DNA of 32,000 bases, from the NCBI GenBank assembly GCA_016699955.1, contig CP064993.1, forward strand, positions 390,001 through 422,000. The letters run 5' to 3'. Both the position numbers and the translations under genes were made by a program. Each line of letters begins with the position of its first letter. Positions within the stretch are counted from its first letter, which is position 1. A model generated the notes under the pieces. It had not been told where the DNA came from and did no database searches. It saw nothing but the letters and a program-made list of their open reading frames with translations. The DNA comes from Candidatus Saccharimonadota bacterium. GTDB taxonomy: Bacteria; Patescibacteriota; Saccharimonadia; Saccharimonadales; UBA4665. Positions 14,568 through 19,111 of the stretch are shown piece after piece.

Positions 14568-14594
14568 CTAACCACCGTGCTTGCCTATATTGTT
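14568..14594 (+). repeat. 27-nt imperfect direct repeat, copy 2, abutting the stop codon of the SagB-like gene
   Basis: CTAACCACCGTGCTTGCCTATATTGTT. See copy 1. Confidence 0.7.
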
Positions 14595-15322
14595 TATTTG
14601 GCGAAGCCACACGCCAAGCCTAGAGCTATGGCTGCGGAAGTATCCTCTAGACCTAACAATGCTTTGATTTCATTATCAAGCAGCCCGCCCATTTCCACTC
14701 CAACCATTTTTTCTTCCACGAGCCTTAGGGATAGGTTCTGAGCAGCATGTCCAACTTCTATTAGGGCGAATCGCCCACCTCTTTCCCCGTATTTAGACGT
14801 CACTCTACTAGCGAACAGCACGAAAACGAATACTACGGCTGGCATTGAATTGTCAGTATCTATATTTAATAGCGGAGCGTAGGATTCCCAGTCTGGTAAA
14901 GCTTTTACCTCAGACAGGCTATGATTATCTGCATTGTAATAGCAGACTTTATGATTCAGCTCTCCGTCATAATTATTTACCAAGCAAAAGATGTCTACAC
15001 CATATGTAGCTCCAGCAGAAGGATAAGTACGCCCATCGCTATTATTCTTTGAGAATGCCGCTAAAAGACTGCCGAGTTGTTTTTTGTTAATTTTCTTTTC
15101 AGCGAAAAGTCTATCACTTTTTCTTCTTTGCATCTGCTTAACTTGTCTGTCAGTTGGCATAGGTAATTTATGGTCTGGCTTAGGATATTGTAGTGCGGGC
15201 ATCTCATGCTCTGCACCGCTATATTCTTCAATAAGTTTTTGAAACTCACCAATATTTACTTCAGAAAACTTGGAGTTCTCCCAAAAAATATCAAAGAGGG
15301 GGCTATTAGTATCTTCGTTCAT
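14594..15322 (-). CDS. SagB/McbC-type FMN-dependent dehydrogenase (azoline oxidase, nitroreductase fold)
   Basis: 242 aa, last gene of the operon. Nitroreductase-like motifs are read as RRKSDRLF, PSAGATYGVDIF and FALIEVGHAAQNLSLRLVEEKMVGVEMGG. Lies immediately downstream of the YcaO gene (4-nt gap). Confidence 0.75.
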   Translation of the reverse strand: MNEDTNSPLFDIFWENSKFSEVNIGEFQKLIEEYSGAEHEMPALQYPKPDHKLPMPTDRQVKQMQRRKSDRLFAEKKINKKQLGSLLAAFSKNNSDGRTYPSAGATYGVDIFCLVNNYDGELNHKVCYYNADNHSLSEVKALPDWESYAPLLNIDTDNSMPAVVFVFVLFASRVTSKYGERGGRFALIEVGHAAQNLSLRLVEEKMVGVEMGGLLDNEIKALLGLEDTSAAIALGLACGFAK

Positions 15323-15326
15323 ACTT

Positions 15327-16583: not shown

Positions 16584-17287
16584 CTGAAGTTGGTGGGGTC
16601 ATTGGGTTCAGGTGTAGGCGTGACTACAGGCTGGCTTTCAATAGTGTTCATAGGAGTAGGGCTTACACGGGGCTCTTGAGTAGTTGCCTGTACTGGCATA
16701 GCCATGCTACCGGCATTCGCTAAAAGCGGTCGGGTTAACTTGCGTATTAATGGGACGAGTAGAAATGGTAACGCTACCGCAAGCAAAAGATACACAACCG
16801 GACCAGCTCCGCCGCTATCGCTGCTGCTACCTGAAAGGCCAAAACCGTAAAGGACTAACGTACCACCACCTATAAACTCACCAATAAAGAATACGGTTCC
16901 TATACCAACGGTTGTACCAATAACTTTTGAGGGTTCATGTAGACCAACTTTTTTATAAATAAACTTGAGAATTAACATCCAAGCAACTACCATTACGGCA
17001 ATTGCATATACACTTAATATAAATGCACTGACGCTTCCAAGAGCTATTGCTATCGGAAATGCTAAGAAACCGAGAACCTTGTAGCTTGCAGCAGACCCAG
17101 AGGTTACATTGTTATCTTTAGCTAAATCCCTGACGTTCATTACGGTTACTGATGATGTGGTTAATATACTGGCTACGCAACAGCAGCAACAGCAGCAAGA
17201 AGAGCACGTAGGAGTAGCCACGGTTGCTTTTGTTCTGGTGTCATCAAATTGTGTTACTAGTCTTTTCATTATCCTATTTGCCCCCAT
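16577..17287 (-). CDS. Cys-run TOMM precursor-like N-terminus fused to a 4-TM membrane protein
   Basis: 236-aa ORF, or 230 aa if it starts at ATG 17269, which forms TAATG with the upstream stop. The N-terminus reads (MGANRI)MKRLVTQFDDTRTKATVATPT-CSSCCCCCCCVASILTTSSVT. Four hydrophobic helices and a Pro/Thr-rich tail follow, with no stop codon between the Cys run and the TM domain (checked codon by codon on 17287..17100). Confidence 0.75.
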   Translation of the reverse strand: MGANRIMKRLVTQFDDTRTKATVATPTCSSCCCCCCCVASILTTSSVTVMNVRDLAKDNNVTSGSAASYKVLGFLAFPIAIALGSVSAFILSVYAIAVMVVAWMLILKFIYKKVGLHEPSKVIGTTVGIGTVFFIGEFIGGGTLVLYGFGLSGSSSDSGGAGPVVYLLLAVALPFLLVPLIRKLTRPLLANAGSMAMPVQATTQEPRVSPTPMNTIESQPVVTPTPEPNDPTNFRW

Positions 17288-18102
17288 GGTAACTTAATTG
17301 AACCGACGTTGTCTATCTTGCTTGAGCCGCAAACAGGACACATTGGCAATTTATATACGCTGCTTTTCCTAACTTTGTGATTTTCAAAATCATATGCAAT
17401 GGTGTTATTAACTAATTCTCTATCGTACTGTTCTAAAATCTTCTTAATTTCTAAGCCGACAACACCAGCTATCAACCCAGAATTATGCTGAATTGCGGGC
17501 TTAGTAGGTGGCTCCGCGTCGCCCCAATACGTAATTACTCGCCCTATCAAACAACTGATACAGGCAGACTGCCGTGGAAAAACCAGAGGGCCAACTGATA
17601 TGGAATGCTCATAAGCTAGGTCGATAAACAAGTGGGGTATTGCAAGCTCTTTATAGTAGTTAGAGCTTGTTAGCTCAACCAGCTTGCCATTAGTCCGAAT
17701 GATTAACAACAAATCAGCGTTAGAACTTACCGACTTATACTTTTCGCCCAGCTCATTCTCTATCCTTTTTGATAATTGCTCATCGCTGCTGCCAAGAAAA
17801 TAGTATGAAATACCAAATGTTTGCTTTTGTTCAATTACATTCAATAGTATGCCTGCGGTTTTAAGTTGTTCTGCAACTTCTTGAGCTTCAGGTGATAACT
17901 TATCTAAACTTATTTGTTCTTGATCCCACAAGACCACCAATTCTTTGCCTACTTGGCTTGAGGTGTCCTCAATTGCAAAAATCTTGTCCGCCCCAGCATT
18001 TAGTATCAGTAAGCCATTCTCATAGATAAGATTCCAGCTTGAGTTCTTGCGGTATGTACAATTATCGTTTTTTATCTTGCTCATAGAGTGCCTGAAGCTC
18101 AT
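17269..18102 (-). CDS. E1/ThiF-like TOMM partner protein (C protein, leader-binding scaffold)
   Basis: 277 aa with an alternative start at 18084. It has an N-terminal RRE-like segment (WNLIYENGLLILNAGADKIFAIEDTS...), a Rossmann-like core and a CxxC...CxxC zinc pair (RQSACISCLIGR; LPMCPVCGSS), typical of E1-like proteins. Confidence 0.7.
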   Translation of the reverse strand: MSFRHSMSKIKNDNCTYRKNSSWNLIYENGLLILNAGADKIFAIEDTSSQVGKELVVLWDQEQISLDKLSPEAQEVAEQLKTAGILLNVIEQKQTFGISYYFLGSSDEQLSKRIENELGEKYKSVSSNADLLLIIRTNGKLVELTSSNYYKELAIPHLFIDLAYEHSISVGPLVFPRQSACISCLIGRVITYWGDAEPPTKPAIQHNSGLIAGVVGLEIKKILEQYDRELVNNTIAYDFENHKVRKSSVYKLPMCPVCGSSKIDNVGSIKLPWGQIG

Positions 18103-19111
18103 TAGCCGTTGTTGGCTTGAGTGAACTCATAATCTTTATTAAATCTGAATTGGTAAGGTGCTTACTGCTAGTTGCGAGTACAACAATACTATTGTCAATC
18201 TTTGCGTAAGTATTGTACTGATTACTAAAATTTGAATCGTGGTGGTATATTTTATCGCCATTAGGAGTTTCACCTATCTCCTCACAGGGAAAATCAAAGG
18301 TCATGATGTCGTTAGGATATTCGGGGCCGCAATCTGTCGGTGGATTAAATCGTTCCCACGAAGCATTAAATATATAAATATGGAACGGGCTGGGGTCGCC
18401 AATATCATTACTACCGTATAGATAATTAACATATAGATAGGCAGCAGGATAATTGTCATACGAGGGTGAAACGCTATAGACGCTATAACCCGCAGGTACA
18501 TAAGTTGGCCTATAGAGATTAAAATCATAACTCTCAATTTTTGACTGCTGTTCCTCCTCATATTGCTGAACACTCGCCTTATCACCTAAGTGCATTGAGC
18601 CAGTAATAGCTAAAATTGCTACTACAACAGCAATGATTAGCTTGTTAGTAGGGTCAAACTTGAGAGCATTAAAGAACCAGTAGAAAAATCCGTAAGCCAG
18701 TGCATTTAATAGACCCGCAGCAGCTACTAACATGAGTGTATTTAGGTGTGCGAGAGTAAGAAAAGAGGGTGCTGAGTAGAGCGAGAGTGTTGCGAGCACC
18801 ACTATTTGAACATAGTTTGCTACCTTTAATTTTCGTAGCACAAAGGCTGCGACCACTACATTTAATACAAATGCTATTCCGATACCTAAATAACCACCTG
18901 CTGCACAAAATCCAAAACCAATATCACAACTGGCCTTTGATGCACTTTCTATACCATAGCCAATGCCATACGAAATAAGGCCGAATAGTAGCCCAAGTAA
19001 CGCCACAGTAGTTAGTTGTTTGCTACTAAAAAGAGAGGGAGTATTAGAATCACTTTGAATGTTTTGTAGAGCGGGTGTGTTTTGAGGCTGAATCTGTCCG
19101 GTATAATCCAT
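18062..19111 (-). CDS. Polytopic membrane protein with C-terminal DUF4367-like ectodomain (first gene of the TOMM operon)
   Basis: 349 aa with about 5 TM helices in the N-terminal 185 aa, then QQYEEEQQ and a soluble domain starting YDFNLYRPTYVPAGYSVYSV. The (Y)xPxY(L/V)PxGY pattern recalls the DUF4367 / anti-sigma C-terminal domain, from memory. Confidence 0.7.
   Translation of the reverse strand: MDYTGQIQPQNTPALQNIQSDSNTPSLFSSKQLTTVALLGLLFGLISYGIGYGIESASKASCDIGFGFCAAGGYLGIGIAFVLNVVVAAFVLRKLKVANYVQIVVLATLSLYSAPSFLTLAHLNTLMLVAAAGLLNALAYGFFYWFFNALKFDPTNKLIIAVVVAILAITGSMHLGDKASVQQYEEEQQSKIESYDFNLYRPTYVPAGYSVYSVSPSYDNYPAAYLYVNYLYGSNDIGDPSPFHIYIFNASWERFNPPTDCGPEYPNDIMTFDFPCEEIGETPNGDKIYHHDSNFSNQYNTYAKIDNSIVVLATSSKHLTNSDLIKIMSSLKPTTANELQALYEQDKKR

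Follow-up and report, generated by a model that had tools for sequence, protein, structure and literature searches.

A cross-phylum cassette of azole-synthetase-type enzymes and a cysteine-tract membrane protein, seen from a Saccharibacteria genome

A stretch of 32,000 nucleotides (nt) from a Candidatus Saccharimonadota bacterium (assembly GCA_016699955.1, contig CP064993.1, positions 390,001 to 422,000), called the window below and numbered from its first letter, carries an operon of five intact minus-strand open reading frames (ORFs), overlapping or closely packed (14594-19111). Four of them make up a cassette that recurs in several phyla: an E1/ThiF-like C protein, a YcaO enzyme (D protein), a SagB-type dehydrogenase dependent on flavin mononucleotide (FMN; B protein), and a membrane protein, here called CysTM, which opens with a leader-like segment and a run of cysteines. 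The sequence data support reading the three enzymes together as an azole synthetase, and the N-terminus of CysTM is probably its substrate (with a probability of about 0.8). The gene content, the enzyme families, the fusion architecture of CysTM, its conservation and the co-occurrence of the genes were established directly. All five ORFs lie where a preliminary description of the window had placed them, with the junctions that it had given: a 41-nt overlap (18102/18062), TAATG at 17271-17267, ATGGTGA at 16583-16577, and a 4-nt gap at 15326-15323 (Table 1).

CysTM consists of a leader of 21 amino acids (aa), a 10-residue core, a hydrophobic region of about 160 residues, and a Pro/Thr-rich tail. 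Together with the Thr that precedes it, the core (TCSSCCCCCCC) offers 11 contiguous heterocyclisable residues. The leader is presumed to be the recognition sequence for the C protein, and the Cys/Ser core the site of thiazole and oxazole formation. In the preliminary description, this Cys-run ORF was the proposed substrate; its leader and core do adjoin the enzymes, but the ORF does not encode a short peptide, its product being a four-helix membrane protein of 230 aa. That length follows from the likely start at 17269 (MKRLV), chosen because of the TAATG junction and the family consensus, most members opening with MKRLVTQFD... The NCBI gene model (IPL85_02090, 16577-17139) instead begins at an internal Met and describes a 187-aa hypothetical protein from which the leader and the Cys tract are lost. 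It is probably a mis-call, since most homologues have Leu or Gln in place of this Met. We also considered a separate precursor gene of 50 codons with a membrane gene behind it, and rejected it because the frame stays open at all loci examined and the internal Met is unconserved. Several database homologues are N-terminally truncated in the same way as the NCBI model. Because gene callers often start CysTM at an internal codon, dropping the leader and the Cys tract, the family is hidden from precursor-based mining, and the cassette may have escaped notice for this reason.

In the AlphaFold2 (AF2) model of CysTM (pLDDT 75), residues 1-32 are disordered and helices span residues 38-58, 63-88, 94-114, 120-149, and 162-194. 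Taken with a hydropathy and charge count over the family, these appear as one amphipathic or hydrophobic helix followed by four transmembrane helices (TM1 to TM4). Lys and Arg are abundant before TM1, in the TM2-3 loop, and after TM4, and near-absent in the TM1-2 and TM3-4 loops (mean 10.1 vs 1.8). When the positive-inside rule is applied to this bias, an N-in/C-in topology is predicted, as a crude estimate, which would place leader and Cys tract at the cytoplasmic face, the side where YcaO enzymes act. A Foldseek search of the model against the PDB gave nothing significant; NqrD and RnfE headed the list, the best E being 0.2 and the TM about 0.28. The Pfam DUF350 match of the window protein (E 0.011) was dismissed as idiosyncratic, one of 22 family members showing it.

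A profile search covering 1.84 billion representative proteins (clusters at 50% identity) returned 371 CysTM clusters at E <=1e-3 and 239 at <=1e-10, for most of which the alignment starts at profile position 1. Lengths in the family run from 140 to 320 aa, and the source annotations found all read 'hypothetical protein'; the family has no consistent Pfam match and no NCBIfam or PADLOC match. A tract of 5-11 Cys is present in 155 of 160 representatives inspected (mode 8; 7-9 Cys in 140 of the 155), the remaining five being gene calls cut short at the N-terminus. Members hardly differ in their N-terminal sequence, MKRLVTQFDD..R....VATPT-CSSCCCCCCC: in a 22-sequence alignment, L, T-Q-F, R, and A-T-P-T do not change across phyla, and the A-T-P-T-C is typically preceded by exactly 17 residues. 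The core varies between TCSSC7, TC7-10, TCGGC8, TCCCSSCCCCC, and TPSCSCCCCSSCC, with the cysteines interrupted by Ser, Gly, Ala or Pro only. The Cys codons (TGC or TGT) vary synonymously between loci while the peptide stays constant, even at about 70% G+C. These differences being synonymous, it is the protein, not a repeat in the DNA, that is under selection, and a triplet-repeat artefact is ruled out. In the membrane domain, W103, Y111, E137, and Y166 are invariant or nearly so, and the transmembrane domains of five subfamilies, aligned without leader and Cys tract, are still homologous (hhalign 94-99% over 131-164 columns; reversed controls <=15%).

Two further observations concern the family (related loci carry L numbers throughout). 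In the high-GC loci L006, L007, and L022, TGT makes up nearly half of the Cys codons of the tract and tends to alternate with TGC, a pattern that may avoid slippage in a homopolymeric codon run. Paralogous CysTM copies, two or three per locus, occur in L004 (6509-7947), L006 (7213-7986 and 10142-10858), L015, L018, L021, L038, and L044; within a locus, their leaders and cores are nearly the same and their membrane domains and tails divergent.

The YcaO enzyme matches Pfam PF02624 at 2.1e-36 (126 bits, cut-off 25.7), and its top NCBIfam model is the SagD-type TIGR03604 (1.7e-46), on which it reaches 158.9 bits, below the trusted cut-off of 219.25. A protein 100% identical to it comes from a Candidatus Saccharibacteria metagenome-assembled genome. 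Among its hundreds of homologues (47-87% identity), 20 that span this range were aligned; all of them share unchanged the acidic ATP/Mg motifs GEGLERY and QELIERDA and, at the C-terminus, PHPLG (E74, E77, R78, E181, E184, R185, D186, and P414-H-P-L-G418). Of the solved chains, MusD, TruD, and LynD come closest (about 1e-9 to 1e-8), followed by the thioamide enzyme MJ1094 (5.6e-8) and, weakly, McbD (8e-4); all are distant. Taken together, the matches and motifs support this protein as the ATP-dependent cyclodehydratase of the azole synthetase.

The closeness of MJ1094, nearly equal to that of LynD and TruD (about 1e-8), and the JGI (Joint Genome Institute) auto-annotation of homologues as 'S12 methylthiotransferase accessory factor' would also suit a different YcaO chemistry, one that puts thioamides or amidines into the membrane protein, or else into a ribosomal target or an enzyme. 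This appears highly improbable to us. The McrA-thioamidation model TIGR03266 gives 38 bits against a cut-off of 365, compared with 159 bits for the SagD model, and the Pro-rich PHPLG end is invariant. Moreover, a SagB-type dehydrogenase and an E1-like partner with a recognition element for peptides made by the ribosome and modified after translation (RiPP recognition element, RRE) are always present, and TfuA is absent, both from the Pfam lists of neighbouring genes at the loci read and from the conserved neighbours.

The C protein scores 40.1 bits, above the cut-off of 36.9, on TIGR03882, the model of the leader-binding/cyclodehydratase domain of thiazole/oxazole-modified microcins (TOMMs). 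A sequence search for solved relatives of this protein returned none. Its AF2 model (pLDDT 81), which has an N-terminal winged-helix, RRE-like domain, is matched over its whole length in Foldseek by LynD (5e-13) and TruD, in both through their N-terminal RRE plus E1-like domains, and by McbB (5e-10), MccB, PaaA, and ThiF. In the CxxC...CxxC pair, a predicted zinc site, C181, C184, and C255 show no variation, and conservation of C258 is at least 90%. The SagB-type protein has a nitroreductase fold (PF00881 at 5e-16) and reaches 71.5 bits on TIGR03605, slightly below the cut-off of 78.4. Among solved structures, it comes closest to the thiazoline oxidases BmdC, McbC, and CyaGox. The residues K177-Y178 and R67/S69/R71 (RxSxR), whose functional meaning we take from knowledge of the family, are kept in at least 93% of 45 homologues. 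An identity as a SagB-type FMN dehydrogenase, predicted to oxidise azolines to azoles, is supported for this 242-aa protein. The preliminary description had named all three enzymes from their motifs, and these names stand: the YcaO with its AIGEGLERYSA, AIQELIERDA, and PHPLG, the E1/ThiF-like partner with its RRE-like N-terminus and CxxC pair, and the SagB/McbC-type dehydrogenase. Its reading of the trio as a B/C/D azole synthetase is borne out as well.

The distribution of the cassette was read from 46 loci, returned when one genome per GTDB species was scanned with the YcaO alignment. An earlier scan with the CysTM alignment had matched 600 stretches, none of which was confirmed, as the poly-Cys pattern swamped the candidates. 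The CysTM gene adjoins YcaO in about 45 of the 46 YcaO-anchored loci, and reverse look-ups that start from CysTM proteins also reach a neighbouring YcaO. By iterated profile search of six-frame ORFs, C protein, CysTM (1-3 copies), YcaO, and SagB are found in essentially all of the loci L001-L050. In L001-L006, the order is C protein, CysTM, YcaO, nitroreductase, with the frame open from the leader through the membrane domain; L001 belongs to Saccharimonadales, and L005 and L006 to 'Actinobacteria HGW-4', of high G+C. The carriers from the Candidate Phyla Radiation (CPR) comprise Saccharibacteria, a complete Parcubacteria genome, and Komeilibacteria. Those from Actinomycetota are many and include Arachnia propionica, Pseudopropionibacterium massiliense, Amycolatopsis minnesotensis, Lentzea terrae, L. 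alba, and Qaidamihabitans albus, together with Gaiellaceae, Solirubrobacterales, and Acidimicrobiia, and those from Myxococcota are Polyangiaceae. Arachnia, Amycolatopsis, and Lentzea are among the cultured carriers. Two of the 46 loci, alphaproteobacterial and about 27% identical, hold only YcaO and SagB homologues and represent another family.

All-against-all clustering of the ORFs of these loci gave no other family in at least six loci, antisense shadows of cassette genes excepted, and no protease, exporter, TfuA or tailoring enzyme stands among the conserved neighbours in about 46 loci. The absence of an ABC exporter and of a CAAX-type or leader protease, which the preliminary description had remarked on, holds for the window and equally for these related loci. 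That description had taken the five genes as one unit, whereas the conserved unit has four, the 349-aa gene being specific to a subclade. It had also suggested, for the case of a reduced epibiotic host, a part in host interaction; the cassette is not tied to an epibiotic lifestyle, since free-living members of Actinomycetota and Myxococcota have it too.

Runs of cysteine can bind soft metals, and eukaryotic cysteine-string proteins are S-acylated. As the Cys number of CysTM is tightly constrained at 7-9, the string might accordingly stay unmodified and bind a metal or an Fe-S cluster, or be modified otherwise, by S-acylation, with the YcaO trio working on another target or on a few residues. 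We consider this very unlikely in view of the strict adjacency of CysTM and the C, D, and B genes, often translationally coupled, in every lineage and in both search directions. The Ser and Gly substitutions seen in the tract (CSS, CGG, CCSCC) are those that azole synthetases tolerate, the invariant leader has no obvious metal-binding role, and no other small Cys/Ser-rich ORF is conserved in the loci.

Table 1. Positions of the operon genes, parts of CysTM, and adjoining blocks in the window
Feature	Position	Strand	Remarks
Gene 1	18062-19111	-	349 aa, membrane protein
C protein, E1/ThiF-like	17269-18102	-	277 aa
CysTM (Cys-run ORF)	16577-17287 (longest ORF)	-	236 aa; 230 aa from 17269
Leader-like segment of CysTM, MKRLVTQFDDTRTKATVATPT	17207-17269	-	21 aa; invariant columns across phyla
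Core of CysTM, CSSCCCCCCC	17177-17206	-	10 residues
YcaO (D protein)	15327-16583	-	418 aa
SagB-type FMN dehydrogenase (B protein)	14594-15322	-	242 aa
Upstream block conserved with L002	19112-19182	-	70 nt; DNA homology to the closest relative stops here
Downstream block common to L002	14258-14593	not assigned	336 nt; degenerate opposite-strand ORF and direct repeats
Recombinase 3'-end remnant	19244-19379	+	136 nt; 76-80% identical to 26945-27080; beside the operon, upstream

From these data we infer that the Cys tract serves as the substrate, that azoles form on it, and that the product stays tethered. In such a pathway, the C protein (E1-like, with its RRE) would bind the invariant CysTM leader (LVTQFD..R....ATPT) on the cytoplasmic side, and the YcaO, with ATP, would cyclodehydrate the Cys/Ser tract TCSSCCCCCCC to thiazolines and oxazolines, which the SagB-type flavoprotein would then oxidise to azoles. 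The expected product, with roughly 8-11 rings in a row, is a rod, rigid and hydrophobic, which would remain covalently attached to the CysTM anchor, in or against the producer's own membrane, as a built-in protein modification. Tethering is suggested because in none of the lineages is the cassette accompanied by a protease or exporter. To the full model, with the polyazole kept on its four-helix membrane anchor, we give slightly better than even odds.

Several points weigh against this model. Azole formation and the number of rings are deduced from the enzyme families, and both the YcaO and the SagB-type protein score under the family cut-offs given above. The topology of CysTM comes from a crude hydropathy and charge count and not from a dedicated predictor. 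As no fold relative of the transmembrane domain can be recognised, homology does not suggest a function for a tethered product. The N-terminal peptide could still be set free by a housekeeping protease. Finally, cores of the streptolysin S (SLS) type with 9-11 heterocyclisable residues are cytolytic alone, which fits a released toxin (PMC4513790).

These last two points lead to the reading of the product as a released SLS-like cytolysin or bacteriocin, whose leader and core would be modified and then cut off by a general protease, while the membrane domain would be a fused immunity, escort or export module. The 11 contiguous heterocyclisable residues of the window resemble the NPH region, the minimal cytolytic unit of streptolysin S (PMC4513790). 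The best NCBIfam model for the YcaO is of the SagD family, the two or three paralogous substrates at several loci recall what is often seen in bacteriocin loci, and the host is an epibiont with pilins of a type IV secretion system (T4SS) nearby. Release would, however, require two cleavages, as the core is followed by about 190 residues, and the loci, about 46 of them, have no CPBP/CaaX protease, leader peptidase or ABC exporter as a conserved neighbour. Across genomes of 40% to about 70% G+C, leader and core are near-invariant while the 'follower' varies, which is the reverse of the usual toxin pattern. In addition, the Cys tract is predicted on the cytoplasmic face, and the cassette is common in free-living soil Actinomycetota and Myxococcota. 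A released toxin, the main alternative, is, on this balance, unlikely. The preliminary description had envisaged a cytolysin-like RiPP for host interaction; a leader and core near-invariant across phyla and a Cys tract predicted to be cytoplasmic argue against a fast-evolving secreted cytolysin.

Among known systems, the cassette resembles streptolysin S (SagA with SagBCD) in its discrete C, D, and B proteins and in a short leader followed by 9-11 contiguous Cys/Ser/Thr residues. It differs from that system in its substrate, a 230-aa four-helix membrane protein where SagA-type peptides have about 50 aa, and in the lack, in the window and the related loci, of a SagE-type CPBP protease/immunity gene and of a SagFGHI exporter. 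Other differences are the almost invariant leader and core across phyla and the scores of the YcaO and SagB-type proteins below the family cut-offs. With McbBCD, it shares a three-component azole synthetase: the model of the C protein superposes on McbB, the SagB-like protein matches McbC, and the YcaO weakly matches McbD. McbA, in contrast, is a soluble 69-aa peptide with isolated or bis-heterocycles, exported by McbEF and cleaved by TldD/E; compared with microcin B17, the cassette has a contiguous Cys run on a membrane protein and no export genes. More generally, a usual TOMM is a short precursor freed as a peptide, whereas here the substrate would be a polytopic membrane protein with no conserved protease.

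Protein-sized substrates of RiPP enzymes that are kept as working proteins are known from McrA, with its thioglycine (YcaO-TfuA), and from the bufferins (MNIO enzymes). In these cases, the modification is a thioamide made with TfuA or a 5-thiooxazole made by an MNIO enzyme, and the substrates, soluble or periplasmic proteins, lack both a contiguous polyazole and a membrane anchor. In the literature searched, outside which most subscription-journal papers lie, no transmembrane TOMM substrate and no CPR description was found. The cassette would, apparently, represent known enzymes acting on a conserved membrane-protein substrate for which no earlier description was found. The expanded SLS family asks for at least 9 contiguous Cys/Ser/Thr residues (PMC4513790), and the window core has 11; this family was considered and rejected as the same system. 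Faecalisin and propionisin are bioinformatically defined TOMM groups with Cys-repeat cores, some of them in Actinobacteria (Cox et al. 2015, PMC4603692). Propionisin clusters have ABC transporters, several CaaX-like proteases, and short precursors, and faecalisins have a Gly linker ahead of the Cys repeat (PMC4603692). Both were rejected as the same system, since gene content and precursors differ and no transmembrane substrate is described for them (PMC4603692).

The near-invariant leader and core, combined with a variable membrane domain, invert the usual RiPP logic and point to a cellular, not an arms-race, role. Azole-forming YcaO systems are known for small secreted peptides (microcin B17, streptolysin S, plantazolicin, and the cyanobactins); if the CysTM N-terminus, the only plausible candidate, is the substrate, azole YcaO chemistry would extend to the maturation of membrane proteins, across phyla. 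Tentatively, and with the odds against it, we suggest that a contiguous polythiazole, fixed in length at about 7-10 rings, serves a conserved family of four-helix membrane proteins as a built-in prosthetic group and is not a toxin. It could possibly act as a rigid conjugated rod that inserts in the bilayer, or bind a metal, ions or electrons. To our knowledge, this would be the first YcaO azole chemistry that makes a cofactor-like element inside a membrane protein. Such an element would be common to CPR bacteria, Actinomycetota, and Myxococcota, and possibly exchanged between Saccharibacteria and their actinobacterial hosts.

The remaining gene of the operon, gene 1, encodes a protein that starts with hydrophobic helices and ends in a domain of about 150 aa with two invariant Cys; it has no Pfam, NCBIfam or PADLOC match. 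A profile search of the loci finds its homologues only in L001-L003, and by this distribution it appears to be a lineage-specific accessory gene of the window's subclade. In L053, an unannotated 314-aa gene occupies the position of gene 1. Another arrangement is seen on the contig of P0226 (GCA_016648615.1, CPR-type) and in L054, where the apparent order is CysTM, YcaO, an unannotated 267-aa gene in the C-protein position, and nitroreductase, with a PedC-like (PF20207) gene and three unannotated genes upstream.

L002, the closest relative (77.5% identity), shares DNA homology with the window only over 14258-19182, a span made up of the five genes, 70 nt upstream, and 336 nt downstream; the flanks are unrelated. 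The 70-nt upstream block is probably the promoter or 5' region of the cassette; in a scan for promoter and terminator consensus, sites were not more numerous than in shuffled sequence. The downstream block holds two 36-nt direct repeats (14325-14360 and 14562-14597), the second of which overlaps the stop codon of the SagB gene. Between them lies a 59-aa opposite-strand ORF, interrupted by an in-frame TAG in the window (about 14391-14572) and intact in L002 (8832-9011); a family search with this ORF gave nothing above threshold.

The cassette stands in other neighbourhoods in L001, L003, L004, and L006. In a neighbour-joining (NJ) tree of YcaO without support values, Saccharibacteria are polyphyletic: the window's clade groups with Solirubrobacterales and Gaiellaceae, and most Saccharibacteria group with 'Actinobacteria HGW-4', Acidimicrobiia, and Arachnia. 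The leader subtype (MKRLVTQFDD... vs MKALPTQFD...) follows the same split. Actinomycetota are the known host phylum of Saccharibacteria, and the tree hints at exchange between the two. As the flanks differ, a recombinase remnant adjoins, and Saccharibacteria are polyphyletic in the tree, it is plausible that the cassette moved horizontally, possibly between these two groups. The preliminary description had proposed a recent horizontal acquisition; movement is plausible, but 'recent' is unsupported, as DNA identity to the closest relative is no higher than 77.5%. The recombinase-gene remnant that it had seen next to the operon is real: the 3' end of the gene for a large serine recombinase (25577-27244; Resolvase, Recombinase, and Zn_ribbon_recom domains) is copied there. 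This remnant belongs to the surroundings of the cassette and not to its machinery.

As to base composition, the operon has 41.2% G+C, with a third-position value (GC3) of 0.33-0.41, against 46.2% for the window and 49% for its outer parts. The low-GC zone extends over about 15 kb (about 12.5-27 kb), with 42.8% at 19.1-27 kb, and the adjacent NUDIX, HAD, SDR, and HbpS-like genes are likewise low (42-46%). An AT-rich island of the size of the operon, as first proposed, is thus not what is found, the zone reaching well past the operon. The low G+C of the operon itself was correctly noted, but the large upstream ORFs, 469-3486 (1005 aa) and 3566-4708 (380 aa), have 50-51% and not 55% or more. Neither of these ORFs has a Pfam match at E <=0.1, and the 'T4SS gene' of the preliminary description is unconfirmed by domain.

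An rve-type/HTH transposase gene (4828-5751) precedes four consecutive T4SS_pilin (PF18895) genes (5945-8583), of a family typical of CPR bacteria. Beside tRNA-Ser(GCT), a 63-nt partial duplication of the tRNA-Ser 3' end (10172-10234/10331-10393) has 97% identity, and a 19-nt exact repeat (27668-27686/27800-27818) follows tRNA-Ser(CGA). The partial duplications of tRNA-Ser look like scars of integration events. The serine recombinase ORF overlaps a tRNA-Arg gene on the minus strand (27179-27255).

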